DNA of 64,000 bases from NCBI GenBank assembly GCA_965249325.1, contig CBDFLP010000017.1:1001-65000 (forward strand), read 5' to 3'. This stretch comes from Dehalococcoidia bacterium (GTDB lineage: Bacteria; Chloroflexota; Dehalococcoidia; Lucifugimonadales; Australimonadaceae). Position 1 is the stretch's first letter. Every line of letters begins with the position of its first letter. The position numbers were made by a program, and so were the translations under genes. The notes under the pieces are model-generated. The model did not search any database. It was not told the DNA's origin and saw only the letters and a list, made by a program, of their open reading frames with translations. This document shows positions 36,483 through 62,392 of this stretch, piece after piece.

Positions 36483-36486
36483 CCAC

Positions 36487-38448: not shown

Positions 38449-38469
38449 CTTCCGACGCTCCCGCGAAGC

Positions 38470-38780: not shown

Positions 38781-38858
38781 CGAAACCTCAACTATTGCGA
38801 GCCTCAAGTGTATGACCTCGTCGCCGTGATGGCGCTTTACCAGTCTCGATGAGAGGGA

Positions 38859-39077: not shown

Positions 39078-39330
39078 GCTCCTCCGTGGATCCGTGTGAA
39101 CCTGACGTAACGCCGGTCGGAGCGGGAGGCGTAGCGGGGGGCCTTGTCGATCTGGGTGATGAACCTCAGACTATGCGCGTCATGCTTGAGGATTCGGAAG
39201 GATCGGCCTATGTTGCGCACCTCGTGCTGCGGGGCACGTACCTACCCGGCACGGTGCCGTTCATCCCGCAAGGGACCTGTGGAAGAAACTCAGGCCTGAT
39301 GATTACCAGACACACCTCTCCGCACTCGAG

Positions 39331-40557
39331 ATGGAATTGCCCGCCTTCACGCAGGCGGTGAAGATGGCCAACCAGGCCCGCGTGGCTGCAAACGGCGGAC
39401 GCACCGGTAGCGCCCCCAGCTTTCCCATGCTGGCCACCAACGTGGGCCAGCTGCGCCAGTTTGTCACTGACGTCGACGGCTACAATCACCCCGATGGCCC
39501 GCCTGCGCAACCGCCTCCCGTGCCGACATGCGCCAATGGGACCGCGGTGTCGAGCCCAGCGATGAACCGCGGACTGGTCCACGACTGCGAGGCGCTGCTG
39601 GCCGCCAAGGACACGTTGCGGGGCACGGGGTCGCTAGACTGGAGCGCGGAGACCGCCATCACGAGCTGGGAGGGGGTCACGACGACTGCCATACCTAGCC
39701 GGGTGACGCCCACCACGGTGGACCGGGTGACGGAGCTGAAGCTGTCGGACGAAGACCTGATGGGGAGCATCCAGGCTGAGCTGGGGACACTGTTCGAATT
39801 GGCGGTCTTGGACCTGAGTTCGAATGCGTTGACGGGAGACCTCCCGGCTGAGTTGGGCTGGCTGTCCAATCTGACGGAGGTCCGGCTGTCGGGGAACCAG
39901 CTGACAGGCTGCATACCGGTGGGGCTGCAGGACGTCGCCACCAACGACCTGAGCTCCCTCAACCTGCTGTACTGCGCACCGCCCGCACCGGAGGGCCTGA
40001 GCGCCGGAACGCCGGGGGACACCAGCGTGGCTCTGAGCTGGACAGCAGTTTCCAACACCAGCAAGTATCGGGTGGAATACCGGAGCTGGGACGGCGATTG
40101 GCTCAGCGACGACACAATCACGGGGACGTCGCATACGATGGACGAGCTGGCCTGCGGGAGGGATTCCTTCTTCCGGGCGAGCGCGTACGGGAGCGGGACG
40201 CTCTATGCGGCGGAGTGGAGCGAGCCATCGGCCGTGGTGTCGGCGACCACCACCGCGTGTGTATCGCCGGTGTTCGAGGCCTCCTCCTACGCCTTCAGCA
40301 TCGCTGACGACGCGGAGGATGTCGCCCTGGGAACCGTGTCGGCGACAGACCCGAACGGGGACACGGTGACATACGCGATCACCGCGGGGAACGACGACGG
40401 GATGTTTGCGATAGGCGCGAGCACGGGAACCCTCACGGTGGTGGGGGAATTGGACTACGAGGCCACCGCCTCGTACACCCTGACGGTCGAGGCGCGGGAT
40501 GGCGATGGCAATGCGGACGCCGCCACCGTGATCGTCAGCGTTGTAAGTGTTAGGTAA
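39331..40557 (+). CDS. LRR-FN3-cadherin-like surface protein, truncated copy (no leader, no anchor)
   Basis: Contains '[12 protein letters not shown]', LRRs ('[13 protein letters not shown]', '[11 protein letters not shown]'), an FN3 ('SWTAVSNTSKYRVEY') and a cadherin-like domain ('[15 protein letters not shown]'). The frame is open upstream to 39190. Ends abruptly next to an IS stub. Confidence 0.7.
   Translation: MELPAFTQAVKMANQARVAANGGRTGSAPSFPMLATNVGQLRQFVTDVDGYNHPDGPPAQPPPVPTCANGTAVSSPAMNRGLVHDCEALLAAKDTLRGTGSLDWSAETAITSWEGVTTTAIPSRVTPTTVDRVTELKLSDEDLMGSIQAELGTLFELAVLDLSSNALTGDLPAELGWLSNLTEVRLSGNQLTGCIPVGLQDVATNDLSSLNLLYCAPPAPEGLSAGTPGDTSVALSWTAVSNTSKYRVEYRSWDGDWLSDDTITGTSHTMDELACGRDSFFRASAYGSGTLYAAEWSEPSAVVSATTTACVSPVFEASSYAFSIADDAEDVALGTVSATDPNGDTVTYAITAGNDDGMFAIGASTGTLTVVGELDYEATASYTLTVEARDGDGNADAATVIVSVVSVR
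39505..40470 (+). repeat. Arm 1 of a roughly 0.95-kb inverted gene-segment repeat (partner about 59095-60030); boundaries approximate
   Basis: 33/33 aa identical ([33 protein letters not shown]) and 67/68 identical ([22 protein letters not shown]...GELDY). The DNA differs only at scattered third positions where I compared it. Confidence 0.8.
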
Positions 40558-40578
40558 TTCGCTGACAGAATTGGGCTG

Positions 40579-40821
40579 GTGAAGCAGCCCCGTCTGGAGG
40601 CGAAGATGCGCGACAACCGAAAAGACCACACCCTCGAACGGAACTACCAGCACAAGTGGCGCCACCTGATCGGCGAGTACGAGCAGGTCAAGGCCGGTAA
40701 GCATCCCCGGTTCCGCTTCGTCCAGGACTTCTACCACGCCCACGGGACCAACCGGCAGACCTTCGACAAGTACTACAATCGCTACCGGCTCTCCGGTGAC
40801 GACGAGGCGCTCCTGAACTAG
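40579..40821 (+). mobile_element. Truncated transposase N-terminal (HTH) stub, IS481/rve-type by resemblance
   Basis: 'HPRFRFVQDFYHAHGTNRQTFDKYYNRYRLSGDDEALL' resembles the HTH leader of rve-type transposases. No catalytic domain follows. GC content drops here. Confidence 0.45.
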
Positions 40822-40888
40822 GGTAACGTACTAAGTGAGACAATGCGGAAGCGCCTTCCAACCTGGACGCGGTTCACGGGGAGCGACC

Positions 40889-42151
40889 ATGAGCATTGGA
40901 GCCTTTGCAAATTACAAGAGACCTTTGACCTTAGTCTTAGGAGGAATAGCTCTTGTCTTGGTTTTCACTGCATCTTCTCCTAGCTGTGACGGCGGTGATC
41001 CAGCGTACAGATGGTTAAAGATTGAGGAGGCTGCGTATCCTCGTCCTCCTTTGTGGAGCCCGGACGGACAGCAGATAGTGTTCAACGCGGATCTACGGAT
41101 GTACTCCGCCTCAGTTGACGGGTCCAGTCTCTACTCATTCCCTCACGGCGGTGAGTTTTCGCTCGAGCATGCATGGAGCATCTCGCCCGATGGCCTCATT
41201 GCGTTTACTAGCTACCAGGGTAGTGGCTTTTTTGAGATTGAGACGGCGTTACTCGACGGGTCCGAACGCCGTCTACTCGCAGAGGAGTATCCGCTTGGTG
41301 CTTATTACCCCGCCTGGTCCCCCGACGGAACGCGTCTGGCTTTTGTTGGAATAGCGAATTTGGAAAGGCCGGACGGGCAAAAGCAATCAATCCGGACTAT
41401 ATACACAGTGAATAGAGAAGGTTCAGATGTACGCCATTACGAGCGTGCTATCCCGGCTATGATGTTGTACAACGAGCCGGCAACATGGTCTCCAGATGGG
41501 CGGCACATCGCGTTGTTGCTATGGGACTGCCGACGTGATGGTGAGGAATTCTGTCCAGTCTATATCGAGGTCATCAACGTCGACACTTCTGAAGCGATGC
41601 GCGTTTCCGAGACGGTGAGTCGCCCGGCGTGGTCTCCCGACAGCAGCCGCATAGCCTTCATTCAATCCAAGAACGGGGTGGAGACGATTGCTACGATACG
41701 CCCGGACGGGTCTGATTTGCGTGAGGTGGCATCTCTCCCTGAAGCAGTGTCCCAAGCTGCAGTGCCAAAAAACGGCTGGCCTCTGCCAGGAAGCTGGGGA
41801 GGACCGTGGAGACGGTGGATGTCATGGTCACCCGACGGATCGGAGATACGATTGCACTGGAGCCCCTTCGTAACCATCGATGTCGATGGTTCGAACTTGC
41901 GCATCATGTGGGCGCATCCCACCAGCCAGGCCGAGTGGTCTCCTGACGGCTCAAGAATTGCAGTCTTGCTTCCTTACGACCCTCTCGGCGTCAGGCTTCT
42001 TTCGATGGCCTCTGACGGCTCGGATAAGCGCGTCCTGGTGAGATGGGATGAAGTTGCTAACAATAGGTGGGAAGCGGCGCACGGGAGCCCGCCGCCCGAC
42101 GTATTCGACTGGATGTGGACGTCCCCTGATGATGCAGAGGCGCGCCCATAA
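40889..42151 (+). CDS. Membrane-anchored PD40/TolB-like beta-propeller protein
   Basis: ATG at 40889 (MSIGAFANYKRPLTLVLGGIALVLVF). Repeats 'WSPDGQQIVF', 'AWSPDGTRLAFV', 'WSPDGRHIALL', 'AWSPDSSRIAFI', 'WSPDGSEIRL', 'WSPDGSRIAVL'. Visibly lower GC than the flanks. Confidence 0.8.
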   Translation: MSIGAFANYKRPLTLVLGGIALVLVFTASSPSCDGGDPAYRWLKIEEAAYPRPPLWSPDGQQIVFNADLRMYSASVDGSSLYSFPHGGEFSLEHAWSISPDGLIAFTSYQGSGFFEIETALLDGSERRLLAEEYPLGAYYPAWSPDGTRLAFVGIANLERPDGQKQSIRTIYTVNREGSDVRHYERAIPAMMLYNEPATWSPDGRHIALLLWDCRRDGEEFCPVYIEVINVDTSEAMRVSETVSRPAWSPDSSRIAFIQSKNGVETIATIRPDGSDLREVASLPEAVSQAAVPKNGWPLPGSWGGPWRRWMSWSPDGSEIRLHWSPFVTIDVDGSNLRIMWAHPTSQAEWSPDGSRIAVLLPYDPLGVRLLSMASDGSDKRVLVRWDEVANNRWEAAHGSPPPDVFDWMWTSPDDAEARP

Positions 42152-42192
42152 CACCGCTATCGAAACTCTCACCGTAAAAGAAGTGCTGGACA

Positions 42193-42440
42193 TCCGGGGG
42201 AACTGGGGACGCTGTTCGAGTTGCCACCGTGATCACCCATACGCCGGATACGGGTTTCAACGGCACTGACGGGTTCGCCTACGCCGTCTCATTCGTCCCG
42301 TCTGAGACGTTGGCGTAGGTGGAAGGTGGGGGTCAGCACCTGCGCGAACGCCGCTGCCGGCTCCGGGCCAAGGGAACCTGGCCTGGTGATGGACTGCGGC
42401 ATCCTGCTGGGGGCCAAGCACACGCTGGAACCAACCTGGA
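42193..42440 (+). pseudogene. Short out-of-frame remnants of LRR / Ig-like surface-protein genes
   Basis: Translations 'GELGTLFEL' (compare AELGTLFELAVLDL), 'TVITHTPDTGFNGTDGFAYAV' and 'MDCGILLGAKHTLE' (compare [14 protein letters not shown]) lie in different frames. Confidence 0.4.
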
Positions 42441-42502
42441 ATACCAGGGAGCACAGAGGAGCGACGCCCCTCTGCCAGGGGACGTAGGGGTATCCCCCAC
42501 AA

Positions 42503-42569
42503 CATGACGGGCGGGAGGGCGGGAGAGTTACGCAAAGATCCCGTCTGCAGGAGAGGATTGAGGAGAGAG
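42503..42569. repeat. Composite REP (collinear with 36511-36586)
   Basis: catgacgggcgggagggcgggagagttacgcaaagatcccgtctgcaggagagg... Confidence 0.65.
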
Positions 42570-42584
42570 CGCAAGCGCCCCGCG

Positions 42585-43016
42585 CTAGTCCTTCGTCCCC
42601 ACCCAGCCGTGGACTGACAGGTCGAACGTCACGCCGTCGGGGCCCGTGAACTTGACCTCCACGTTGCCCCCGCCCGTCTCGCCCGGCCTGCGTCGGTTGT
42701 ACTCTTCCCGGATCTTCGGCTCCGTGTGCTCGACGGCCCCCGCGTCCAGCACCTGGGTCTGCGCGGCGTCCATGTCGTCGACCCCGAACCCGATGTGGTG
42801 GACGCCCGTGAGCTTGGTGGCGCCCTCCGTCACCGCGGCCCACTCCTCCCGCCACTTCAGGATGGCCAGGTTCACGTGGCCGTCGCTCAGGTAATAGCCC
42901 TCCGCCGTCGGCGAGTCGACTCTGCCGACCTGCTTCAGGCCCAGACCTTCCATATAGAACTTGGCCGTGGCCTCCGGGTCGTTCGTTCCGAGAGCGATAT
43001 GACGAATGCGCGCCAT
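42585..43016 (-). CDS. VOC-family protein (glyoxalase I-like)
   Basis: 'IRHIALGTNDPEATAKFY' and 'HHIGFGVDD' motifs. Confidence 0.85.
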   Translation of the reverse strand: MARIRHIALGTNDPEATAKFYMEGLGLKQVGRVDSPTAEGYYLSDGHVNLAILKWREEWAAVTEGATKLTGVHHIGFGVDDMDAAQTQVLDAGAVEHTEPKIREEYNRRRPGETGGGNVEVKFTGPDGVTFDLSVHGWVGTKD

Positions 43017-43100
43017 CGTGCTTCCTCCACTGGATTACGTGGGCCGCAGGATATACCAGCCGCCGCGGAGCGGGGAAATCAGGATGCGACCGCCCCCCTC

Positions 43101-43165
43101 CGTCATTCCCGCGCAGGCGGGGACCTCGTAGCGGCGCAACAGCGGCGCGATCCCTCCCCCACCCA
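43101..43165. repeat. REP family A with tail (cgtcattcccgcgcaggcggggacctcgtagcggcgcaacagcggcgcgatccctccccc)
   Basis: Collinear with 48690-48755. Confidence 0.7.
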
Positions 43166-43237
43166 CGGACATAAACACCAACCAACCGCCATTTCGCGTA
43201 TAGTCCCACCGAAATATACGCAACCCGGAGGCAGCAC

Positions 43238-44230
43238 ATGGACCTGAGACTCAGCATCGCGCTCGCGAACAACCCCCGCACCTGGCCGATCATGACCGGC
43301 GAGGTCAAGCCCGACGGCATCGAATTCATCCCCACGTCCGTCCACGGCTCCGAAATCTTCTGGCGTCAGCTGAAGTTCGCCGAGTTCGATGTGTCGGAGA
43401 TGTCCTTCTCCTCCCTGATGATGGCCATGGCCCACGGCGACACTAACTGGATAGGCCTGCCCATCTTCACCACGCGCAGCTTCTTCCACACCGGCATCCT
43501 GGTGAGAAAGGACGCGGGCATCGAGAGTCCCGCCGACCTGAAGGGCAAGCGCGTGGGCGTCCCCGAGTATCAGCAGACCGCTGCCCTCTGGACGCGCGGC
43601 GTCCTCCAGCACGAGTTCGGCGTCGAACCCAAGGACATGGAGTTCTTCATGGAGCGCGTCCCCGAAGTGAGCCACGGCGGCTCAACCGGGTTCCAAGCTC
43701 CCCCCGGCGTAATCATCAACCAGATTCCCATCGAGAAGAACATCGGCTCCATGATGCTCTCCGGCGAGCTGCAGGCGACCCTCCTCTACTTGCGCGACCC
43801 CAACCTCGTCGACCGCAGCACCGCGGACCTCCACAACCACCCGGACGTCAAGCCCCTCTTCCCTGACACAGACGCCGAGGGCATCCGTTACTTCAACAAG
43901 ACGGGCCTCTACCCCATCAACCACGGCATGGTCATACGCCGCTCGGTCGCAGAGGAGCACCCGTGGGCCGCGCTCAACATCCTCAAGGCCTATGCCGCCG
44001 CGAACGAGCTCACGAACCGCCGCCGCATCGAGCATGTCGAGTACTACGTGCGGGCCGGCCTCGTCACCAAGGAGTCCGGCGCGGCCCTGCGCGAGTCGCT
44101 GATCAAGCACGGCATCCGGGCGAACCGCACGGTCCTCGAAACGGCCGCCCAATACTCCAACGAGCAAGGACTCACCCCCCGGCTGATGAAGTTGGAAGAG
44201 ATCTTCGCAAAGACGACCATGGACCAATAA
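43238..44230 (+). CDS. Periplasmic-binding-protein-fold enzyme, 4,5-dihydroxyphthalate decarboxylase-like (no leader)
   Basis: 'LKGKRVGVPEYQQTAALWTRGVLQHEFGV' and 'PINHGMVIRR' resemble the Pht5/NMT1-like family. Assigned from memory. Confidence 0.6.
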   Translation: MDLRLSIALANNPRTWPIMTGEVKPDGIEFIPTSVHGSEIFWRQLKFAEFDVSEMSFSSLMMAMAHGDTNWIGLPIFTTRSFFHTGILVRKDAGIESPADLKGKRVGVPEYQQTAALWTRGVLQHEFGVEPKDMEFFMERVPEVSHGGSTGFQAPPGVIINQIPIEKNIGSMMLSGELQATLLYLRDPNLVDRSTADLHNHPDVKPLFPDTDAEGIRYFNKTGLYPINHGMVIRRSVAEEHPWAALNILKAYAAANELTNRRRIEHVEYYVRAGLVTKESGAALRESLIKHGIRANRTVLETAAQYSNEQGLTPRLMKLEEIFAKTTMDQ

Positions 44231-44280
44231 CCCCCTCTCCCAGCGGGAGGCCTTTGCATCCCTCAACACTCCCGCCCATG
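44231..44280. repeat. REP variant (ccccctctcccagcgggaggcctttgcatccct...)
   Basis: The 'cctttgcat' core recurs at 38488-38497 and at 48923-48933. Confidence 0.45.
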
Positions 44281-44449
44281 CCGCTTCAGATTCGCATGGC
44301 TCTTTCAGTCTGGCCCGGTCGCCCGCGACTGCTGCCTCGCCTTGACTAATCTCCCCCTCCGCGCCTGCCCACGGCCGGGCGACAGTGTGACAAGGAGCGG
44401 TTGAATGCGCGTGGTTGTCCGCCTATCCTGCGAAGAGGAGCCCCGCAGC

Positions 44450-44632
44450 ATGACCACCCCAGACCACCCCATCACGAAGGAAGAGCTCAGGGAAGAACTC
44501 AAGCACTACGCGACCAAGGCCGACTTGGCCAACGCCAAGGTGGATATCATCAAGTGGTTCGCCGGCTCGATGCTTGCAGGCATGGCCGTGATGACCGGCG
44601 TAGCGGCCGTCCTGCTAAGGCTGTGGGCATAG
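44450..44632 (+). CDS. Small coiled-coil plus C-terminal TM protein (DUF1640/XhlA-like architecture)
   Basis: ATG at 44450 with GAGGAG 10 nt upstream. 'TKADLANAKVDIIKWFAGSMLAGMAVMTGVAAVLL'. Confidence 0.5.
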   Translation: MTTPDHPITKEELREELKHYATKADLANAKVDIIKWFAGSMLAGMAVMTGVAAVLLRLWA

Positions 44633-44644
44633 GAGCTACCAGCC

Positions 44645-44812
44645 ATGCTAAATGTAGTCCTGGGCGTGATAGTGCTCCTCTCGTTCGTGGGTCTAGCCGT
44701 CATCCTGGCCGGAGAAAACTGGGGATTGGCGATCCAGGCCGTCGCCATGGCTGTGCTGATTGGCGCCGTAGCCTGGATCACCAAGTCGGCAGGTTCCGGT
44801 AGCAGGAAGTAG
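44645..44812 (+). CDS. Possible 55-aa two-TM protein (below the ORF-track cut-off)
   Basis: MLNVVLGVIVLLSFVGLAVILAGENWGLAIQAVAMAVLIGAVAWITKSAGSGSRK. Starts 12 nt after the previous stop. Confidence 0.35.
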   Translation: MLNVVLGVIVLLSFVGLAVILAGENWGLAIQAVAMAVLIGAVAWITKSAGSGSRK

Positions 44813-44898
44813 CAGAGGCGCCGTCTCCGTAATCTTCCCGAACGAGATAGGAACGCGCAGCGGTGGTCCGTCTAAGGGCCGCAACCAGGAGGCCAGAC

Positions 44899-45300
44899 AT
44901 GGGCGGAATCAGCGGAGTGAACCACGTGGCGGCGATGGCCAGGGACATGGACGAGACGGTCCGCTTCTACGGCGAGCTGCTCGACATCCCCATCCGCGCC
45001 GTCGTGAACGACGAGCCGGGCCACAAGCACTACTCGTTCAACCTCGGCGGCGAGGGGACGCTCGACTTCTTCGAAGCGCCCGCCGGGACCGCCGGAACGG
45101 CCCGCGACACCGTAGGCGCGCTGAATCATCTCGCAGTGACGGCGACTCCCGAGTTCATCGACACCGTCGAGCGCCGCCTGACCGAGCGCGGCATCGCATC
45201 CCAACCGACGGATCGCGCTGGACAGAAGACCATCTACTTCAGCGACCCGAACGGCATCAACCTGCAGCTCTACCCATCGACCGGCGGCAGCCGCGCTTAA
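44899..45300 (+). CDS. VOC-family protein
   Basis: ATG at 44899 after AGGAGG. 'VNHVAAMARDMDETVRFY' and 'LNHLAV' motifs. Confidence 0.8.
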   Translation: MGGISGVNHVAAMARDMDETVRFYGELLDIPIRAVVNDEPGHKHYSFNLGGEGTLDFFEAPAGTAGTARDTVGALNHLAVTATPEFIDTVERRLTERGIASQPTDRAGQKTIYFSDPNGINLQLYPSTGGSRA

Positions 45301-45510
45301 ACCCCCTCTCCCGTCTGCGAGGAGTGTCTAGTCCGTCTGCGTGGGAGACTGAGAAGGGGTCGTCACTCCCGCGAAGGCGGGAATCCAGGAATCCCCCTCC
45401 CGTCTGCGGGAGGGGTCGCGCAAGCGTAGCGAAGCGCGGGGGGAGGAGAACGCCCCGCCAGCCCAATCGGCGCCCCCGTCCGTCATTCCCGCGCAGGCGG
45501 GAACCTCGCC
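45301..45510. repeat. REP cluster: family B, B, A, B with GTCGCGC tail, A
   Basis: ctctcccgtctgcgagg; gtccgtctgcgtgggag; cgtcactcccgcgaaggcgggaatccagg (45361-45389); ccctcccgtctgcgggagggg; cgtcattcccgcgcaggcgggaacctcg (45481-45508). Confidence 0.75.
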
Positions 45511-45535
45511 CCCGAATGCCGGGCGTTGGGCCCGC

Positions 45536-46483
45536 CTACAGCTCCGCGATGCAGTTGACGGACGGGAGCCCCTCGGCTGCGACGCTCCACTCATCCCCGT
45601 TTGAAGCCCGCATGAGCACTTGCCCGCCGTGCGTGCCTGCGAAGACCTTGCCCTCCTCATCCACGGCGAGAGCGTCGATGGCCTCGACGAGACCCTCGCT
45701 CATCAACGGCGCCCAATCGCCGCCGCCGTTGTCGCTCCGGTAGACCTTGGCGATGGCCCCCTCCGGACGGGTGCGCCAGTTGCGGGGCCTGCCCGCGGTG
45801 GCCGACGCGAAGAGCCGCTCAGGCTCGGTCGGGTCGTTCGCGATGGCGATCGTGTAGAGGTGGTCGAATCCGTCGCAGCGGGACTGCCACGACTGCGCCC
45901 CGTCGCTCGTGCGGAAGAAGCCGACGCCGGTCACCGCGAAGATGTGGTCCTGCTCGCCGGGGGCCGCGGCCAGGCCGTGGACGTCCGGGTGCATGTTCTC
46001 GCGGGCCTCGCTCCAAGTCTCCCCGCCATCCTCGCTCACCATTACGCCCCCCACCTCGACGCCCACGTAAACGCGCTTCGCGTCCGTCCGCGAAACGGTG
46101 ATGGCGCGCACGTTTGGCAGATGGGGCGAAACAGGGAACGTCCATGACCAGTAAGTGGGCAGGTCCTTGAAGCTCAGCACCTCGGTGAACTGCTCGTCCG
46201 CGGGACGGCGGCGATAGAGGACCGCGTTGTCCGCGCCGGCGAACACCGTCCCGTCGATGGCGACCGCCAGCGAGCGGACGTCGACGCCGTCGAGCGTCGC
46301 CTTCCACGTCGCGCCGTCGTCGCTGCTTTCGTAGACGCCCTGCTCGGTGGCGGCGAGAATACCGCCGCCGGCGCGACCCACGGCCTCGACGCGGGACCCG
46401 TCGAGTGCGCGCCTGACAACCTCCCAGGAGTCCGCAGTCTTCTCCAGCGCGGCGAAACCATTGCTCGTTCCTACGGCAAGCAT
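45536..46483 (-). CDS. Asp-box (BNR) repeat beta-propeller protein, no signal peptide (paralog 3)
   Basis: Boxes SSDDGATW, SEDGGETW, TSDGAQSW and SDNGGGDW. Confidence 0.75.
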   Translation of the reverse strand: MLAVGTSNGFAALEKTADSWEVVRRALDGSRVEAVGRAGGGILAATEQGVYESSDDGATWKATLDGVDVRSLAVAIDGTVFAGADNAVLYRRRPADEQFTEVLSFKDLPTYWSWTFPVSPHLPNVRAITVSRTDAKRVYVGVEVGGVMVSEDGGETWSEARENMHPDVHGLAAAPGEQDHIFAVTGVGFFRTSDGAQSWQSRCDGFDHLYTIAIANDPTEPERLFASATAGRPRNWRTRPEGAIAKVYRSDNGGGDWAPLMSEGLVEAIDALAVDEEGKVFAGTHGGQVLMRASNGDEWSVAAEGLPSVNCIAEL

Positions 46484-46522
46484 GAGTCTCCTCCCGTCCC
46501 CAAGGTGCGCCGACTATAGCAC

Positions 46523-46617
46523 CCCTCCGCCATCCCCGCCCCCTCCGCCATCCCCGCCCTCTCCGCGATTCCCGCGAAACCTCTCCCCGTCTGCGGGAGA
46601 CTAAGAAGGGGCCGCCC
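46523..46617. repeat. Perfect 18-bp tandem duplication (CCCTCCGCCATCCCCGCC x2) followed by REP A/B units
   Basis: 46523-46540 equals 46541-46558. Then gattcccgcgaaacctctccccgtctgcgggagactaagaaggggcc. Confidence 0.7.
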
Positions 46618-46667
46618 TTGACGCGGCCGACCGGGACGCCAAGAATGCGCGGCGAGCGAGGTGAGCC

Positions 46668-47129
46668 ATGTCAGAAGCGAACAAGGCCGCCATCCGGCGG
46701 CTGTACAACCGGGTCTACAACGAGGGCGACATCGGCCTTATAGACGAGATGTACTCTCCGGAGGTCGAACTGCACATCGCGGGCATCCCCGAGGACCCCT
46801 TCGGCCCCCAGCCCATCAAAGAGCTGGCGACGATGACGCGCACCGCCTTCCCTGCCATCCACGTCACCATCGACGACCTCGTCGCGGCGGACGACAAGGT
46901 GGTGGCCAGCGTCTCGTTCAACGGAGGGTTCCAGGGCGCGTTCAACGGCCACTCGCCGCGCGCGAACCTCTCGTGGTGGCGGCGTATCGACATCTACAGG
47001 CTGGCGAACGGCGTCATCGTCGAGCAATGGGGCGACCGCGACGACTACACCACCCTCCAGCGCCTAGGCGTAGCCGTCCCCCACTTCGAGGACAAACGCC
47101 CGAACGCCCGCTCCGCCGGCCGCCTCTAA
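46668..47129 (+). CDS. SnoaL-like ester cyclase family protein
   Basis: 'NKAAIRRLYNRVYNEGDIGLIDEMYSPEV' and 'RLANGVIVEQWG' motifs. Confidence 0.8.
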   Translation: MSEANKAAIRRLYNRVYNEGDIGLIDEMYSPEVELHIAGIPEDPFGPQPIKELATMTRTAFPAIHVTIDDLVAADDKVVASVSFNGGFQGAFNGHSPRANLSWWRRIDIYRLANGVIVEQWGDRDDYTTLQRLGVAVPHFEDKRPNARSAGRL

Positions 47130-47132
47130 CGT

Positions 47133-47361
47133 CTTCTCTCCCGTCTGGGGGAGACCGAGAGGCCCCCGTCATTCCCGCGAAAGCGGGAACCCCGGTATCG
47201 GAGCCCTCTCGATAGTCTCATAACCTAATAGGTTCGTGGTGAGCCCGTCGAACCACGAGGCCCGCCAATCAACGCTCCCACCCCGTCATTCTCGCGCAGG
47301 TGGGAACCTCTGTCTGCCCTACCCTCCTCCCCCGTCTGCGGGGGAGGATTGAGGTGGGGGC
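47133..47361. repeat. REP cluster: B, A, C, A, B
   Basis: tctcccgtctgggggaga; cgtcattcccgcgaaagcgggaacc (47167-47195); ttcgtggtgagcccgtcgaaccac (47233-47256); cgtcattctcgcgcaggtgggaacc (47284-47310); cctcccccgtctgcgggggagg. Confidence 0.75.
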
Positions 47362-47390
47362 TGCGGCGGGGGATCGAGGAGGGCGCCGCC

Positions 47391-48449
47391 CTACTCGACT
47401 ATCCCGTAAAGCCGCCCCGGGTTGTCCGCGAGAATCTTGTCCACCACTCGCGACTCCAGCAGGCCGCTGCCCTTCAGCGACTTCAGCGCCTCCAGCTCGC
47501 TCGACGTGTCCGAGTGGCCGTAGTCGGAGCCAATCATGAGGTTGTTCTCCGAGGCGTGCTCGAGAATGTACGGCAAGTCGTCGTTGGTCTGGCAGGCCAC
47601 GTACATGCGGTTCTCGCCGAGCACGTCGTCGCCAAGGCTCCAACCTTCCCGCTTCACACGGCGGTAGAGGTCGTTGAGGATGTAGGGGACCCAGTTCGCG
47701 GCGACCTCGACGAAGCCGAAGCGCAGACCGGGGAAGCGCTGCGGAACGCGCTTGAAAAGGAGGGAGTGGAACGAGCTGATGACCGGGAGCTTGTTGCGCG
47801 CGAACGCGTCGCCATCCGTCAGTTCGACGAACGCGGGATTGCCGCATCCGGCGTGGACGGTGATCGGCAGGTCGTTCTCGACGCAGGCCTCGTACAGCGG
47901 GTCGAAGTACTCGTCCGTGAGACGACGGTTGTTCTCGTAGCCGCGCGTGAAGACGCCGACGGCGCCGTTGTCCTTACCGAAACGCAGCTGCTCGGCGACC
48001 GCATCCATGGTGTCCAGGGGCGGCACGACGACCCAGCGGAGACGTCCGCCGCTCTGCGCCCAAACGTCCGCCATCCAGCGGTTGTAGCTCTTCGCCAGCG
48101 CCACCTCCACGTCCGGCCGCTCCGTTATCCGCGTAAGGTAGATCGTGGGATAGAGCACCTGCACGTCGACCCCCAGCTCGTCCATGTGAGCGAGCCGTGC
48201 GTCGATGTCGGCGAGGGACCGCGTCTGGAACGTGGTCTCCGAAAAGCCGGACATCTTCTCGGACGGCGCGCCGGTCGCGCTGGTGCCGAAGGGGCGCTGG
48301 CGGGCCCGGCCGTCGATGACCCACATGGGGCGGTCCGGACGGTCCGGGTTCTCGACCGCCTTGGGCTTGAACTCGATGTCCTGGGGGTCCAGGTACTCCC
48401 AGGTCTGTTCGCTTTCGATCACATGGCAGTCGGCATCGATTACGGGCAT
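47391..48449 (-). CDS. Amidohydrolase-2 family protein (ACMSD/decarboxylase-like)
   Basis: ATG at 48449 after AGGAGG (MPVIDADCHV...). C-terminal 'ILADNPGRLYGI'. The ORF-track N-extension runs through REP sequence and is rejected. Confidence 0.85.
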   Translation of the reverse strand: MPVIDADCHVIESEQTWEYLDPQDIEFKPKAVENPDRPDRPMWVIDGRARQRPFGTSATGAPSEKMSGFSETTFQTRSLADIDARLAHMDELGVDVQVLYPTIYLTRITERPDVEVALAKSYNRWMADVWAQSGGRLRWVVVPPLDTMDAVAEQLRFGKDNGAVGVFTRGYENNRRLTDEYFDPLYEACVENDLPITVHAGCGNPAFVELTDGDAFARNKLPVISSFHSLLFKRVPQRFPGLRFGFVEVAANWVPYILNDLYRRVKREGWSLGDDVLGENRMYVACQTNDDLPYILEHASENNLMIGSDYGHSDTSSELEALKSLKGSGLLESRVVDKILADNPGRLYGIVE

Positions 48450-48515
48450 CGCTATCGCCTCCTGAGCTGATGGCGCAAAGGTTACACCTTTCCAGCGCGC
48501 ATCCCCACCCCCAAC

Positions 48516-48830
48516 CCTCCCCGTCTGCTCAGGTCCCCTCTCCCGTCTGCGGGAGAGGGCTAGGGAGAGGGTCTGCGGGGGAGAGCTAGAGAGGGGGCCG
48601 CCCCACCCCCCAATCAACGCCACCGCCCCCGTCATCGCCACGCCCACCCGTCATTCCCGCGAAAGCGGGAATCCAGGACGCCCACTTTCCGTCATTCCCG
48701 CGCAGGCGGGAACCTCGCAGCGGCGCGACAAGCGGCGCGGTCCATCCCCCTCCCCCGTCTGCGGGGGAGAGTTAGAGAGGGGGCCGCCCCACCCGCCAAT
48801 CAACGCCCACCCACCCGTCATTCCCACCCC
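48516..48830. repeat. Densest REP cluster in the window (at least 4 family-B and 3 family-A units plus CCAATCAACGCC tails)
   Basis: For example cccgtctgcgggagagggctagggagagggtctgcgggggagagctagagagggggccgcccc; cgtcattcccgcgaaagcgggaatccagg (48649-48677); cgtcattcccgcgcaggcgggaacctcg (48690-48717). Confidence 0.8.
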
Positions 48831-48954
48831 CCCAACCACCGACACTTGCCCCTTACCCCAACCACCCTCACCCACGTAAAAATTAACGACAGACAGGCCC
48901 TGGGAAGCACGGCGACCCAGGGCCTTTTGCATCCCTGAAACAGAGGCTCCAACC

Positions 48955-50334
48955 ATGCCCTCACCCCAAGACGAGAACTACCTCCACGCCGTCTCCCGCG
49001 CCCTCCGATGCGGCAACCCTGATTGCCCGTGCGCCTCCGAGCCCCCGCGCCTCCATTGCCCCATCCACACGACCCCCGACGCCCCCACCCTCAGCGTCGA
49101 CTTCGACGACTACCTCGGCTTCACCTTCCAGTGCTCCTCCGACTCTTGCGACGACGCCCGCATCGCCTCCGCCCTCGCCAAACGCGGACTCGCCCCCGAC
49201 TCATGGCTCTTCACCCCTGCCGGAGCCCAAGAGAGCGGACTCCAGCCCGCGTCCCTCGTCACTCCCCACCCCCAAGACTGGCTCTGGCCCAACCGCATCC
49301 CCATGGGACGCCTCTCCCTCATCGCCGGATTCCCCTCCTCAGGCAAGACCGCCATCGCCCGCGACATCGCCGCCCGCGTCTCCCTCGGAGCACCCGCCCC
49401 CGACGACCCCAACGCATCTTTCGTCCGCGCCCCCGTCCTCATCGCGTCCCTCAACGGCGACCACGCCGCCCTCGACGTTCCCCTCCTCCGGGCCGCAGGC
49501 GCCGACCTCTCCCTCGTCTACTTCGCCGACACCCTCTCCCCCGAGCACCTCGCCGATCTCCCCGAAGGCCAGTTCCTCCCCGACTACGACGCCTTGGAGC
49601 GCCAAGCCAAGCTCCACGACAAGGTCCGCTCTTTAGAAGACCTCTGGCAGTCGCCCATGCCCGACGAGATGAAGCAACCCCTCAAGGTCCCCGACCGTCC
49701 GCCCTGGCCCGGAGTCGACCTCCTCTTGCGCCGCCTCTACAACCTCATCGTCCGCGGCGGCGTAGCCCTCCTCATCGTCGACCAGGTCGAAGACCTCGCC
49801 GCCCGCCACGCCGCCCAACCCTCCACTGTCCTCGGCAATCTCAACGGCCTCGCCGCGCGCACCGGCGCCGCCGTCCTCGCCATCGCCCACAACCCCGAGC
49901 CGGCGCTCCCCAAGGCCGCCCGCTCCATGGACGACGCCCCTCCCCCCATCCCCTACGCCCTCACCTCCACGACCGTCACCTGGCGCAAACCCATCCCGCC
50001 CTCACGCCTCCGCGCCCTCGTGGCTTCGGCGTCAGCCCCGCGCGCGACGGCTCCCTCACCACGTCTTCCCAAGCAGGCCGCCGCGCGCCGCTACCTCCGC
50101 CGTGCCCTCGCCAAAGGCCCGCAACCCGCCTCCCGCATCAAGCAGGACGCCAAAGCTCGCGGCATCTCCAAACGCCAGCTGGAACGAGCCCGCGCCTTCC
50201 ACAACGTCGTCACCACCCGCGCCCGGTCCAACGGCTCCGACAAGAAGCTGTGGTGCTGGACCTTGCCCCTCCCCCTCCGTCATTCCCGCGCAGGCGGGAA
50301 TCCAGAGTTGGATTACACGGGACCCGCCAGATGA
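48955..50334 (+). CDS. CHC2-like Zn-finger plus RepA/AAA_25-like ATPase (mobile-element replication/primase-helicase-type protein)
   Basis: 'CGNPDCPC...LHCPIHTTPDAPTLSV' resembles the primase CHC2 finger. Walker A 'GFPSSGKT' and Walker B-like 'ALLIVDQVEDL'. C-terminal basic HTH-like region. The last 15 codons run into a REP-A unit. Confidence 0.7.
   Translation: MPSPQDENYLHAVSRALRCGNPDCPCASEPPRLHCPIHTTPDAPTLSVDFDDYLGFTFQCSSDSCDDARIASALAKRGLAPDSWLFTPAGAQESGLQPASLVTPHPQDWLWPNRIPMGRLSLIAGFPSSGKTAIARDIAARVSLGAPAPDDPNASFVRAPVLIASLNGDHAALDVPLLRAAGADLSLVYFADTLSPEHLADLPEGQFLPDYDALERQAKLHDKVRSLEDLWQSPMPDEMKQPLKVPDRPPWPGVDLLLRRLYNLIVRGGVALLIVDQVEDLAARHAAQPSTVLGNLNGLAARTGAAVLAIAHNPEPALPKAARSMDDAPPPIPYALTSTTVTWRKPIPPSRLRALVASASAPRATAPSPRLPKQAAARRYLRRALAKGPQPASRIKQDAKARGISKRQLERARAFHNVVTTRARSNGSDKKLWCWTLPLPLRHSRAGGNPELDYTGPAR
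50277..50305. repeat. REP family A unit inside the 3' end of the ATPase ORF
   Basis: ccgtcattcccgcgcaggcgggaatccag, translated as 'RHSRAGGNPE'. Confidence 0.75.
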
Positions 50335-50342
50335 AACAAGAA

Positions 50343-50562
50343 AGTCTCGAATGGGGAACTTTCGAGACTCGGGAAGCAGGCCACGGCCATGAAAACCCCC
50401 TCCAGAACCCCTGTCTTACCCCTCGATTTCGGGGAACTTTCACGCCTGATCAACATGCAAACGGGGAACTTTTCACTCGTAGCCAAAATGCGGTGGGGAA
50501 CTTTTTCACTCCTAACGAAAGTAAGCTGGGGAACTTTTTTCACCCAAACGGGGAACTTCCCC
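50343..50562 (+). repeat. Iteron-like array: six direct GGGGAACTT(T)n copies, four at 32-33 bp spacing
   Basis: Copy starts are 50353, 50431, 50463, 50495, 50528 and 50550. Copies 2-5 read GGGGAAC-T3/T4/T5/T6-CAC. Copy 1 straddles the loop and 3' arm of a 9-bp perfect inverted repeat (agtctcgaa / ttcgagact). Confidence 0.8.
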
Positions 50563-50578
50563 TACCCAGCCCTCCGCC

Positions 50579-50645
50579 GCCGCCCGTCTGCGGGCAGGCC
50601 AGCCTGATTCCCTCCCCCGTCTGCGGGAGAGGGCCGAGGGGTGGC
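50579..50645. repeat. REP family B, two units
   Basis: ccgcccgtctgcgggcagg and ccctcccccgtctgcgggagagggccgagggg. Confidence 0.65.
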
Positions 50646-50713
50646 GTGACGAGAGAGGCGCTGATATGACAATGGAGCGCACAGCAGGCCCTCAACCCCC
50701 TAGGAGGATTTCA

Positions 50714-52306
50714 ATGGCAAAGCCACGCATCGCGGTGTTCTCGGGCCCACGTTCGACAATTGCGAACACGCCCACCCTGGTAACGAGCAACAAGGGGCGC
50801 AGCGCGGACGAGCCCCAATTGGAAGGGCGGTTCGACCATCTGGCGCCGCAGCGCCTGCACGAACCCGTACGGGTGCGCATCGAGAAGTTCAGCGCGCATC
50901 CCTTGGAGTCCGACGCCGCCGAGGTCTACCACGACGACGGCAAGCCGTACTACGAGGTGGAGCTGCGCCCGGAGGATGGCGCGTATCTCCTGCCCTACGT
51001 GGCGCGCCGCGCCGACGGCTCAGACGACGGCGCGCCGTTCGAGGACGCCGATGTGCGCGATGCCAGTATCGGCTACGGGGGGCGGCAGTCGTTCTTCCCC
51101 GATGCGTCGCGGCTGTTCGAGGAGATCGACCGCGGGCTGAGCGGCCGCGGCCACGATGGGGCGGCGAGCGAACTGGACCGGCTCGGAGACTACGACTTCG
51201 TACGGGTATTGCCTCCGGCGGGCTACACGAAGCAGGGCGAAACGGCGGGCCGGGACTTCTTCCCGTACAGCCCGCGCCCCATCGGCAAGTTCCTGCCGAA
51301 CGCCGCGATGGCCCGCGCCGTCAACATCGTGCAGCAGACCATCGACTCCGGGCGCTACGACGGCTTCATCTGGCTGGAGGGCAGCCCCCACGTGGAGGAG
51401 ACCCTCTACTGGCTCAGCCTCGTGCTCGACACTTCCCTCCCCTTCGTCGGCATATCGTCGCAGCGTGCCCACGGGACGCTCGCCAACGACGGCGACCGGA
51501 ACATTGTGGACGCGGCGCGCTACATCGCGTCCGGACTCGGCGAGGGGCTGGGGGCCGTCGGCATCGTGGACGAGCAGATATTCGCGGCGCGCACGTTCAA
51601 GAAGGGCGACGCGCGTCCGGGCGGCTATCGAGCGACGGGCGGGCACGGCGGGGTGCTCGGCAGCGCGGGCGAGGAGGTGCGCGTCTGGTTCCGTCCCGCG
51701 TACCGGACGACTGGCTCGTCCGAAGTCGCTCTCAAGAGCCTGCCCGCCGAGGTCGTCTTCCAGGAGTACGGCGACAGCCCGGAAACGACGAGCGTGCGCA
51801 TCAAGGACGAGGACGGCTCGCTGCGCGGCGACGCCATCGCGCCGGTGCATATGGTGAAGTACGCCCACTACATGGCGGAGGAGGACACGGCGGACCCGGA
51901 CGTGGAGGTCGACATCATGGCCCGCATCCAGCGCGGCATCGAGCAGCAAGCGTCGGATGAGCCGGGCGCTCCTCGGCTCCACGGGTTCGTGCTCGAAGGC
52001 GCAGCGGGCACCGGCTCATCGCTGCCAAGCCAGCTGGCGGCGCTCGCCATCGCGGTCTACCACGGCATGCCCGTAGCCCGCGTGGGCCGGGGCGACCCGG
52101 AGGGCGCGATGCCCTCCAACCCGAACGATCTGACGATAGAGGGAAGCAACCTGGACGCGATCAAGGCGCGGGTGCTGCTACGGGCGGCGATGCTGAAGCT
52201 GGGGCCCTTGCCCAAGGCGCGCGACCCCCGCAACCCAACGCCCCAGGAACGCAAGGCGTCGCTCACGGCAATCGCCCGCTATCAGGAGATATTCGACACG
52301 CACTAA
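50714..52306 (+). CDS. Atypical asparaginase/glutaminase-fold protein (about 530 aa)
   Basis: ATG at 50714 after TAGGAGGA. 'PRIAVFSGPRSTIANTP' and 'GFIWLEGSPHVEETLYWLSLVLDTSLPFVGISSQR' parallel the asparaginase N-domain motifs. Large insertions are present. Confidence 0.6.
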   Translation: MAKPRIAVFSGPRSTIANTPTLVTSNKGRSADEPQLEGRFDHLAPQRLHEPVRVRIEKFSAHPLESDAAEVYHDDGKPYYEVELRPEDGAYLLPYVARRADGSDDGAPFEDADVRDASIGYGGRQSFFPDASRLFEEIDRGLSGRGHDGAASELDRLGDYDFVRVLPPAGYTKQGETAGRDFFPYSPRPIGKFLPNAAMARAVNIVQQTIDSGRYDGFIWLEGSPHVEETLYWLSLVLDTSLPFVGISSQRAHGTLANDGDRNIVDAARYIASGLGEGLGAVGIVDEQIFAARTFKKGDARPGGYRATGGHGGVLGSAGEEVRVWFRPAYRTTGSSEVALKSLPAEVVFQEYGDSPETTSVRIKDEDGSLRGDAIAPVHMVKYAHYMAEEDTADPDVEVDIMARIQRGIEQQASDEPGAPRLHGFVLEGAAGTGSSLPSQLAALAIAVYHGMPVARVGRGDPEGAMPSNPNDLTIEGSNLDAIKARVLLRAAMLKLGPLPKARDPRNPTPQERKASLTAIARYQEIFDTH

Positions 52307-54582: not shown

Positions 54583-54924
54583 CTAGGCGTCCGGAACTAG
54601 CGGCTCCAGCTGGATGATGAGCATGGGGAGGTCATCCTGGATGGTCTGCCATACGAGCGCCCAGTTCACGTCGAAGTAATCGTGAACGACGCGGTTTCTC
54701 ATGCCAACCATCCTGCGCCACTCGATGTCGGGGCTGGCTTCCCGAGTGCTGTCGTCCAACTGGGAGGCCGCCTCTCCGATGGTGGTAATCGCATTGAGGA
54801 CTGCGTTCTGATGCAGCCTGCTCTGGATGAGGGCGACGAACGTCATGCCATTCACGAATGAAACGGCTTCACGGGCGGCCAACAGCATATCGGCAAGATA
54901 GGCCCTGTCGTCATGCTGCGTCAT
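54583..54924 (-). CDS. hepT: HepT-type HEPN (DUF86) toxin
   Basis: 'RNRVVHDY' R-x4-H motif. 113 aa. Overlaps the upstream mntA by 14 nt. Confidence 0.85.
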   Translation of the reverse strand: MTQHDDRAYLADMLLAAREAVSFVNGMTFVALIQSRLHQNAVLNAITTIGEAASQLDDSTREASPDIEWRRMVGMRNRVVHDYFDVNWALVWQTIQDDLPMLIIQLEPLVPDA

Positions 54925-55228
54925 AGACCACCTGAGCCGATTCCAGGATGGGCCTGCGCCGGTAAGGGTTCCGGCTGTTCTCAACAGCCACCCAATCGAC
55001 CAGGTCTGCCTTGCGGCCGAATATCTCGGTGAGCTCGTCCTCCATCTCGTCGAGGTGATGGAGCTTATGCCGGGCATCGGGGCTGAAGCGGACGAGCACA
55101 TCCACGTCGCTCTCCGACCTGAAGTCGTCGCGCAGAACGGAGCCGAAGAGAGCGAGCTGCGTAATCCGCCAGCGCTCGCAGAACGCCGCGATGTCATTGT
55201 GGGGTATGGGGATTCTAGGCTCCGCCAT
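54911..55228 (-). CDS. mntA: MntA-type nucleotidyltransferase antitoxin
   Basis: 'LALFGSVLRDDFRSESDVDVLV' GSx10DxD motif. ATG at 55228 after GGAGG. Confidence 0.85.
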   Translation of the reverse strand: MAEPRIPIPHNDIAAFCERWRITQLALFGSVLRDDFRSESDVDVLVRFSPDARHKLHHLDEMEDELTEIFGRKADLVDWVAVENSRNPYRRRPILESAQVVYDAA

Positions 55229-55281
55229 CGTCACGCCTCCGTTGCTCGCCACCTGAACCGCCGCCTCCCGTCCTCCTCGCC

Positions 55282-55704
55282 CTACTCCGGCTCGGCCCAG
55301 GGATTGTAGCTGCCCATGTGCCAGAGCTGGCCCTCGGGGTCGCGGACGGAGAACAGGCTCCCGCCGTAAAACTGCTCCTCGAGTTCCATGACGATGTTCG
55401 CGCCGGCGGCTTTCACTCGCTCGTAATGCGCCTCGATGTCGCTGACGACGACGAGGGCGCACTGGGTGAGGAGAGCGTCGGGGGCGGGGGCGACGACGAT
55501 GTCGCCTGCGTCGTCCCGGTAGGAGCCGAGCATGACCATGCCGTTACCGAGTTTCAGCTGGGCATGGGCGACGCCGCCTGCGCCGTCCGGGACGACGAGG
55601 TGACGCTCGAACCCCAAGACGTCGCAGAGCCAGTCGATAGCGGCGAAGGCGTCGCGGTACCGCATGCCGGGGATGATGTTGCCCTTCAGGTCTGCCTGGT
55701 TCAT
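55282..55704 (-). CDS. VOC-family protein (PhnB/glyoxalase-like)
   Basis: 'GMRYRDAFAAIDWLCDVLGFE' and 'HAQLKLGNGMVMLGS' motifs. Confidence 0.8.
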   Translation of the reverse strand: MNQADLKGNIIPGMRYRDAFAAIDWLCDVLGFERHLVVPDGAGGVAHAQLKLGNGMVMLGSYRDDAGDIVVAPAPDALLTQCALVVVSDIEAHYERVKAAGANIVMELEEQFYGGSLFSVRDPEGQLWHMGSYNPWAEPE

Positions 55705-62389: not shown

Positions 62390-62392
62390 AAT

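Follow-up and report, generated by a model that had tools for sequence, protein, structure and literature searches.

The DNA considered here is a 64-kb stretch from a Dehalococcoidia bacterium (the window), and the element under study is a module at positions 48841-50562 of it, one of a family of one-gene modules of about 1.7-2 kb. The module carries a single gene (48955-50334, plus strand, stop codon counted in), which encodes an initiator-helicase-like protein of 459 amino acids (aa), and ends with an array of short repeats. The locus is best read, at a probability of roughly two in three, as a slightly decayed Rep-ori module of the self-loading helicase-initiator type, with cognate iterons placed after the stop codon. 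The Rep-ori type is proposed because the layout nearly matches the rule described for staphylococcal pathogenicity islands (SaPIs), in which the Rep protein has a winged-helix C-terminal domain and 6-12 iterons lie directly 3′ of rep, at least two on each side and in opposite orientation (PMC9371898). We infer from the features described below that the array is bound by the protein and acts as an origin, at which rings are loaded, DNA is melted and replication of the module begins.

Relatives of the module are restricted to metagenome-assembled genomes (MAGs) of Dehalococcoidia/SAR202, and 94 loci have been found among GTDB species representatives. Genomes carry 2-7 copies each, as counted in the best 80 of the 94 loci. 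Literature searches for this protein or module family returned no description; the family is self-contained and previously undescribed.

Repeats 3′ of the gene and their match to the protein

The sequence GGGGAACTT occurs six times in the window, always on the plus strand, at 50353, 50431, 50463, 50495, 50528 and 50550, the copies being spaced by 78, 32, 32, 33 and 22 bp. All are confined to 50353-50558 and no other copy is found in the 64 kb; 0.36 copies would be expected by chance, and none of 100 shuffled sequences has as many as six. Counted from the stop codon, the first site starts at 19 nt and the array ends at 228 nt (50562), the 3′ boundary of the module. Site copy 1 (50353-50361) lies within a perfect inverted repeat of 9 bp (50343-50369, plus strand; arms 50343-50351 and 50361-50369), in the loop and the 3′ arm. 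Next to it is a core conserved in the family, GGGAAGCAGGCCACGGCC (50371-50388, plus strand), with the palindrome GGCCRYGGCC at 50379-50388. The iteron array (50431-50562, plus strand) is made of units of the form GGGGAAC-T(3,4,5,6)-CAC at 50431, 50463, 50495 and 50528, and closes on the GGGGAACTT copy at 50550; unit 2 retains the family box CACTCGTA(G). The six direct copies, the 32/32/33 spacing, the T-runs of 3, 4, 5 and 6 nt ahead of CAC in copies 2-5 and the 9-bp inverted repeat had been reported in a first-pass annotation of the window, and all are present in the sequence.

The same annotation had singled out the graded T-tract. The series is real; its monotonic order alone carries little weight, being a 1-in-24 event given four distinct values, and the weight comes from the ortholog and, loosely, from two paralogs. 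The runs of 3, 4, 5 and 6 are identical in the orthologous locus L005 and approximated in the paralogs L009 (3, 5, TTTCTT, 6) and L011 (4, 6, 6), and the series is therefore taken as an inherited feature of the array, approximately preserved by three lineages, rather than as fresh slippage. Comparable tandem units in the subfamily are CCAACAAC-T4/T5-ACTCGTAAC in L001 and GGATAC-T6-ACTCGTAAC in L010. To judge from these sequences, an ancestral unit (site, T-run and CACTCGTAA box) has been tandemly multiplied in the window subfamily into a direct array phased at 32-33 bp. T-tracts recurring every three helical turns bend DNA in phase. The T-runs are the sole AT-rich DNA in a 68-70% GC context, and a role in DNA bending or melting is plausible.

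Scatter of the motif through the genome would have marked it as one more dispersed repeat. It is unique to the locus in the window, and the 10-mer GGGGAACTTT, looked for in 89 related loci, is arrayed solely in the ortholog L005. Identity of GGGGAACTT with dispersed repeats of the type of repetitive extragenic palindromes (REPs) or bacterial interspersed mosaic elements was ruled out by its confinement to 50353-50558; the true REPs of this genome behave differently. Single-strand folding of the array is no better than that of shuffles (z = -0.71). An Rfam scan of the window gave no match and no known RNA, and a tRNA scan of the window found none, leaving no tRNA-type att site. Three C-type motifs were detected in the element by a G-quadruplex scan, too few to build on.

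Cis elements were counted in 66 non-redundant family loci and 132 control segments. Downstream of the gene, the usual order is the stop codon, two tandem inverted sites, the core gggaagcaGGCCRYGGCCttgnaaacacccc, two tandem direct sites with a 9-nt period, a TTAC(TC/GA)GTAA box, one direct site and, about 15 nt on, one inverted site, after which similarity stops. GGCCNNGGCC lies within 130 nt of the stop codon in 49 of the 66 family loci and in none of the controls. Four or more copies of a 10-mer are found in 24/66 loci versus 3/132 controls, and at least three site copies, in both orientations around GGCCRYGGCC, in 45/66 loci. The family site approximates nnAAGnnnnnCA and varies between members.

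This variation follows the recognition helix of the C-terminal domain. Helices with RRTLFRAR go with the site AAGAGTGCCA (9 loci), those with (K/R)RTLRRARLxCN.KATR with AAGGGGGCCA (8 loci), and those with (K/R)STLVRARALCNV.AFR with AAGAATGTCA (9 loci); KGTLRRAR.ACNVICTR is paired with AAGGTG..CA (4 loci), SALHRAR with AAGATTTCA (5 loci) and GTLKRAR with CCAAGGAG (3 loci). In the 38 loci of these six named classes, helix and site classes are in one-to-one correspondence. The array of L020 is built on CCAAGGGGGCCA, and L079, where two helix/wing types are combined, has the hybrid site AAGGTGGCCA. The repeats are read as the predicted cognate binding sites of the protein because site sequence covaries with the recognition-helix motif, and this sequence pattern supports the iteron reading advanced in the first-pass annotation.

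In paralogs residing in one genome, the 5′ 1.23-1.28 kb are 92-98% identical and the 3′ ends unrelated; similarity breaks off at about codon 370-385, where the winged-helix domain begins. Among the pairs L008/L009, L005/L007, L043/L066 and L036/L038, three of four diverge completely at the C-terminal domain and array; the exception is L036/L038, in which the identical block measures about 1.6 kb. The C-terminal domain plus sites would therefore be a specificity cassette attached to a homogenised motor, and the pattern indicates gene conversion of the motor with protection of the cassettes.

The array is also the best-conserved stretch of the locus. L005, which has the same flanks in another Dehalococcoidia MAG, differs from the window at 7.2% of gene positions (12.8% at third codon positions) and by 2 mismatches in the 138 nt of the array (1.4%). 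At the third-position rate, the binomial probability of one mismatch or fewer is 1.3e-7, the observed count being 2.

Motor, winged helix and zinc domain

The window protein matches the Pfam family AAA_25 (PF13481) with an E-value of 8.7e-15 and 55.3 bits, against a cut-off of 27, and the match recurs in 75/75 aligned family members. The RecA-fold ATPase core, delimited by Pfam and Foldseek, spans 49258-49990 (plus strand). It contains a Walker A motif, GFPSSGKT (49327-49350, plus strand), and a Walker B-like LLIVDQ (49768-49785, plus strand), both read from the sequence; the 459-aa open reading frame (ORF) in which the earlier annotation had placed them is present at 48955-50334. G125, S129, G130, K131, T132, D276 and Q277 are invariant in alignments of 25 and 75 sequences. 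The motor is conserved family-wide, Walker motifs and an RRR segment included, and its sequence suggests that it may act as a hexameric helicase.

The AlphaFold2 (AF2) model of an intact relative, P0002, has a mean confidence (pLDDT) of 72, and shows a RecA-fold core between a small N-terminal domain and a C-terminal domain. The latter is made by three helices (380-403, 411-420, 425-434) and a β-hairpin (438-443, 452-457); mean confidence in this part is 89% over residues 400-439, and 57% and 62% in the flanking blocks. As modelled, the C-terminal domain is a winged helix, predicted to bind DNA. In the window protein it covers residues ~376-440 (50080-50274, plus strand), as placed by the AF2 model and covariation, and its recognition helix includes ISKRQLERARAF.

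Foldseek comparison with the PDB returned RecA, RAD51, KaiC and DnaB at about 1e-8. The best structural matches were obtained in a viral library, and are phage primase, Prim-Pol and replicative helicase proteins (E 1e-15 to 1e-8). These matches, together with AAA_25, bear out the primase and helicase homology on which the first-pass reading depended. By sequence, the PDB yielded weak RecA and RepA matches alone. When 1.8 billion representative proteins were searched by profile, the family fell within a very large group, of 22,733 clusters at E<=1e-3. The nearest outsiders to the family, with profile E-values of ~1e-35 to 1e-40, measure 600-800 aa and combine a CHC2 zinc finger and Toprim, or Prim-Pol and PriCT, with AAA_25; outsiders of both layouts match the C-terminal part of the profile as well.

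The N-terminal Cys/His zinc domain (residues 1-80; 48955-49194, plus strand) was delimited by invariant alignment columns, and its AF2 model has a pLDDT of 80.5. C19, C24, C26, H34, C35, H38, C60 and C65 are invariant ligands in the 25- and 75-sequence alignments. C35, H38, C60 and C65 make up the CHC2 ligand set, a C-x2-H ... C-x(2-4)-C arrangement around a P(S/T)(L/F)xV strand, in which T45 is invariant, P44 nearly invariant, and L46 invariant in the 25 and nearly invariant in the 75 sequences. Direct alignment by hhalign of the family N-terminus with residues 1-100 of E. coli DnaG falls in the expected register, with a probability of just 3.5%, and the same comparison with T7 gp4 gives no match. 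The N-termini of the Toprim-AAA_25 relatives close the distance: the family aligns with them at 96.7% (E 4e-10), and their own alignment with the zinc domain of DnaG has a probability of 94.5% (E 7e-8). Among the intermediates, P0319 matches PF01807 above threshold, with 48 bits, and the outsiders P0267, P0316 and P0330 have the same extra CGxPGCxC knuckle and ALxxRGLxP helix as the family. Homology of the family zinc domain to primase zinc ribbons is supported transitively, by these intermediate sequences. The CHC2 finger of the first-pass annotation is thus recovered through intermediates, having failed in direct comparisons by Pfam, by Foldseek, and by hhalign with DnaG and T7 gp4.

Neither the window protein nor the 25 most frequently matched of 32 Pfam families in 75 members includes a Toprim or Prim-Pol match. 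The zinc domain ends at about residue 80 and AAA_25 starts at about residue 102, with merely ~20 residues between. Since zinc domain, AAA_25 and C-terminal part are all homologous to those of the Toprim-AAA_25 relatives, the family is viewed as a primase-helicase minus its primase domain: by this sequence comparison, the ~200-residue Toprim catalytic domain has been lost, and zinc domain, motor and DNA-binding tail kept.

Boundaries, decay and chromosomal setting

The 5′ boundary of the window module is the box GACACTTGCCCC (48841-48852, plus strand), the local form of a (TG)TGACAC(G/T)(C/T)GCCC box that family loci share together with a promoter-like hexamer pair. In upstream alignments of >70 loci, similarity ends just 5′ of the box, and the adjoining DNA is unrelated DNA, REPs or the end of an insertion sequence (IS). 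A REP ending in ...GG(G/T)GA(G/A)GGTTG lies within ~10 nt of the box in at least six independent loci (L023, L028, L029, L055, L059, L068); either the box is a preferred point of REP insertion, or REPs have a role in module placement.

Next to the box, a -35-like TTACCC (48853-48858) and a -10-like TAAAAA (48877-48882), separated by an 18-nt spacer, form a putative promoter (48853-48882, plus strand), matching in position the TTGCGC-18 nt-TACCAT/TACGAT of distant members. Promoter and terminator consensus scans of the window locus called nothing. The leader includes a hairpin with 9-bp stem and 11-nt loop, GGCCCTGGG / CCCAGGGCC, followed by TTTT (48896-48928, plus strand); it is kept in the close subfamily (L002, L003, L005, L007, L009-L012), looks like a terminator or attenuator, and was missed by the terminator scan because its loop exceeds 8 nt. 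In distant members (L018-L084), the -10-like TACCAT/TACGAT ends 6-7 nt 5′ of the ATG, which suggests leaderless mRNAs. The window subfamily differs from these in its ~70-nt leader with the terminator-like hairpin.

The window copy has lost 93 bp, in frame, between two repeats of CTCCATG (junction at 49923-49929, plus strand), as revealed by the alignment of 25 proteins and by L005. The deletion removes 31 residues (MRRLIPAAAAVFTTALAGPNRRRVLVPLRPS in relatives), missing from this copy alone among the 25 aligned proteins and present in L005. In the P0002 AF2 model, the segment forms the end of helix 318-331 and the strands 334-341 and 346-351, with the conserved RRR. The motor of the window copy is probably dead or crippled, because 31 conserved residues of the ATPase core are missing; the protein may still bind its well-preserved array. 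dN/dS relative to L005 is 0.25, within an overall range of 0.23-0.41. The deletion, not seen in the first-pass annotation, is the real mark of decay. That annotation had taken the REP at the 3′ end of the ORF as an invasion. The REP is real (50279-50300, plus strand) and encodes a ...RHSRAGGNPE... tail; it is not recent, being common to the ortholog L005 and to the paralog L009 of another genome, and is therefore old and tolerated.

Two REP families, GTCATTCCCGCGNNNGCGGGAA (8 copies) and CCCGTCTGCGGGNGAGNG (11 copies), reside at 35326-50633 of the window; all copies are on the plus strand and within 35.3-50.7 kb, a strict orientation and a regional bias. The hairpin REP GTCATTCCCGCGCAGGCGGGAATCCAG is translated in frame in several members of the protein family, at columns ~447-470 of the protein alignment, as V(I/V)PA(E/Q)AG.. 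inserts, such as VIPAEAGIQ (P0036, P0066, P0094, P0101), and forms also the C-terminal tail of the window protein. Insertion of REPs into coding sequence is apparently tolerated.

No integrase, relaxase, capsid or other mobile-element gene recurs within ±4 kb of 84 loci. The annotated neighbour clusters that do recur are SAR202 metabolic paralogs (CoA-transferase, Rieske, short-chain dehydrogenase/reductase families, amidohydrolases). The module is a solitary one-gene family member and not the remnant of a larger island. The replication-module reading of the first-pass annotation is upheld as to homology, uniqueness of the motif and lack of conservation of the locus, and abandoned as to a leftover island; replication itself remains at the level of inference.

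The locus is not conserved in all relatives. Two of them, in which the flanking asparaginase-domain genes are 90-94% identical and neighbouring gene order is largely kept (nearly all in L086), have DUF1801 where the module would be, accompanied by a DUF559 fragment or an IS30-like gene. Homology to L086 is interrupted from near 48497 to near 50690; the comparison shows no target duplication, and the interval has been replaced, not simply filled. Other module positions are orthologous across genomes, as those of L002, L003 and L007. By comparison with L086, the program ORFs 47391-48647 (minus strand) and 50666-52306 (plus strand) over-extend both neighbour genes, with true starts at ATG 48449 (minus strand) for the amidohydrolase and at ATG 50714 for the asparaginase-domain gene; the over-extensions are REP-derived. 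Farther on, at ~54583-55462 (minus strand), two overlapping ORFs are found where the syntenic L085 has a HepT-like/nucleotidyltransferase (MNT) toxin-antitoxin pair, 3′ of an adh_short gene.

The coding strand had been described as C-rich and G-poor, and both skew and four-fold codons agree. GC skew is -0.35 to -0.45 over 48600-50200 versus about 0 in the flanks, and the NNC:NNG ratio at four-fold codons of the gene is 236:26 (90% NNC) versus 34-75% NNC in eight neighbours. The coding strand is poor in G in every family gene; its skew is -0.14 to -0.38 (<= -0.2 in all but six loci), and the NNC share has a median of 0.82. In the two full-length relatives, which are of equal GC, skews are +0.03 and +0.17 and NNC shares 0.55 and 0.38; G avoidance, absent from them, therefore arose with the solitary family. 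Speculatively, the sign of the G depletion would fit repeated leftward forks from the downstream array, the minus strand being leading and G-rich; equally speculatively, a long C-rich, G-poor mRNA might be an ideal Rho substrate. GC content drops locally at 62001-64000 (0.53) and 40001-42000 (0.59), relative to ~0.65 for the window.

Interpretation and known systems

Under the Rep-ori reading, the family would descend from CHC2-Toprim-AAA_25 primase-helicases of int-AlpA-type integrated elements. Sites, GGCCRYGGCC core and TTAC(TC/GA)GTAA box would constitute an origin-like cis element, on which the winged-helix domains would dock. Protomers would be concentrated there, and rings of a RecA-fold (RepA/DnaB/gp4-like) hexameric helicase would self-assemble around DNA that has melted in the region of core and T-tracts; host enzymes would do priming and synthesis. 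The inverted site pairs flanking the core in most members would suit the loading of two rings.

Several observations weigh against this reading. The window copy lacks part of its motor. GC at the array is 0.59 locally, no AT-rich unwinding element is found there besides the T-runs, and all six sites are direct, unlike the inverted pairs of most relatives. The cumulative GC skew over the 64 kb draws no origin-like V at the element, the local change of sign not persisting. As to the zinc domain, PF01807 (Zn_ribbon_DnaG) is matched neither by the window protein nor among the 25 most frequently matched of the 32 families in 75 members (E<=1), and Foldseek comparison of the N-terminal model with the PDB gave a best E of 2.5 and no primase match. 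Free forms of the module were not encountered: three ~2-kb contigs with family genes have no circular or head-to-tail junction and no terminal overlap, and are ordinary chromosomal fragments; two pattern scans of Joint Genome Institute (JGI) metagenome contigs, limited to exact matching and narrow gap ranges, found no 3′-end to 5′-end junction; no relative is found on IMG/VR viral contigs; and tblastn searches of PLSDB plasmids and INPHARED phages gave matches to the Walker-A region only. Finally, C-terminal domain and sites lie within ~300 bp, and part of their covariation could be due to co-inheritance; recognition is favoured because the residue/base pattern is one-to-one and one sequence is repeated in every copy of an array.

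The main rival holds that the protein is a domesticated DNA-binding ATPase and the array an operator or decoy, serving regulation, exclusion of or incompatibility with incoming satellites or plasmids of like specificity, or defence, and that no replication is fired. Such a role would suit long-term chromosomal residents under purifying selection, with no recombinase or packaging genes recurring nearby, which have lost the primase domain and whose co-resident copies hold distinct specificities, as incompatibility would demand; it would also account for an array kept in the window despite a damaged motor. Simple autoregulation is unlikely, given that the sites are 3′ of the gene and that no copy is seen in the promoter region in upstream alignments. 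Also against this rival, the inverted pairs around the core have the geometry of helicase-loading origins, and the motor is conserved throughout the family, down to the RRR segment. A weak PADLOC match to mad8 (E 5e-6) covers the generic ATPase core only, and identification as a defence system on this basis was rejected. Altogether, a domesticated binder seems unlikely, though it deserves to be kept in mind. Somewhat more doubtful is an extension of the Rep-ori reading, according to which the modules fire within the chromosome, as auxiliary origins or for local amplification of the adjacent metabolic paralogs; they would then form a previously unrecognised class of minimal, recombinase-less replicon-like units, each a primase-less self-loading helicase-initiator with an origin of its own, maintained at 2-7 copies per SAR202 chromosome with mutually distinct cassettes and a homogenised motor, and repeated leftward forks would explain the G depletion.

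A self-mobile one-gene transposable element, moved by the zinc-finger helicase and with the repeats as its end, is improbable. Genomes do carry 2-7 copies at unrelated positions, presence is polymorphic at the window locus, both boundaries are defined, and modules often adjoin REPs and IS elements. Pfam detects no nuclease, recombinase, transposase or HUH domain, the sites are confined to the 3′ end, the two ends share no terminal inverted repeats, and no target-site duplication is visible. Moreover, near-identical full-length copies are not found within a genome, the best pairs being mosaic, and several positions (L002/L003/L007) are orthologous across genomes. The notion that the repeats are noise of tandem duplication or REP-like origin beside an unrelated ATPase gene, or a structured RNA or terminator, is largely refuted and very hard to sustain. 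The array does resemble a 32-33-bp tandem duplication with homopolymer slippage, and REPs are dense around the locus; yet the motif is confined to this locus and its ortholog, homologous architecture recurs in most family loci, the array covaries with the protein, and it is far better conserved than synonymous sites. The folding and Rfam results given above speak against a structured RNA.

If the Rep-ori reading is true, chromosomes of SAR202/Dehalococcoidia, abundant and uncultured bacteria of the deep ocean and of sponges, hold several independent initiator-origin pairs, in each of which a helicase reads its own sites. The family would offer a natural series of helix residues and DNA bases, F, R, V, H, K and A at one helix position going each with a different site, and a clean case of motor homogenisation with diversification of specificity cassettes, as incompatibility theory predicts. 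The question is raised whether bacterial chromosomes, as archaeal ones, have extra element-derived origins. The extreme synonymous avoidance of G is a separate puzzle, which may report on replication or transcription of the module.

Among known systems, RepA of RSF1010 (PDB 1g8y), an AAA_25 hexameric helicase, belongs to the same Pfam family and RecA-fold ring type, and gives a weak profile match (E 0.11). To our knowledge, it has neither a zinc domain nor an origin-binding winged helix; in RSF1010, the origin is recognized by a separate protein, RepC, and priming is done by RepB'. Iteron plasmids (Rep_3/RepA-type) have phased direct repeats beside the initiator gene, as in the window subfamily, and a diversification of specificity in the family is consistent with incompatibility. 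Their initiators are not helicases and recruit DnaA/DnaB, and their origins feature DnaA boxes and an AT-rich DNA unwinding element, none of which is seen in the family module.

Genomic context was read for two full-length relatives, L093 and L094, of the CHC2+Toprim+AAA_25 primase-helicases, which follow a gp4/P4-alpha-like logic and include P0267, found in an int/HTH_17 island. Their homology with the family extends over zinc domain, AAA_25 and the C-terminal part of the profile; the ~200-residue Toprim is absent from the family, and G avoidance is absent from these relatives. In both contexts the gene follows HTH_17 (AlpA-type): L093 lies within an island made by an integrase, a gene of unknown function, the HTH_17 gene and the primase-helicase, whereas L094 has no integrase nearby. 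In the minimal replicon of the archaeal plasmid pRN1, an essential origin segment is reported to lie directly 3′ of the multifunctional replication gene ORF904 (PMC4234260), as the family sites lie after the stop codon; the ORF904 protein combines Prim-Pol with a superfamily 3 (SF3) helicase, and the plasmid replicates autonomously, whereas the family module is chromosomal.

The closest parallel is with SaPIs and other phage-inducible chromosomal islands (PICIs). There, too, a single protein serves as helicase and initiator, short iterons are recognized by a C-terminal winged helix (a prediction in the present family) and begin directly after the stop codon, and Rep-ori specificity varies from element to element. 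At least two sites on each side, in opposite orientation, are found in most family relatives, and not in the window subfamily with its direct array. SaPI Reps are not of the RecA-fold superfamily 4 (SF4) type (PMC9371898), whereas the motor of the family belongs to the AAA_25/RecA-fold class. A SaPI is an island of ~15 kb that includes integrase, regulators and packaging genes, whereas the family module is solitary and has no clear AT-rich centre; peculiar to the family are a primase zinc domain kept without the primase, multi-copy diversified cassettes and a composition bias.

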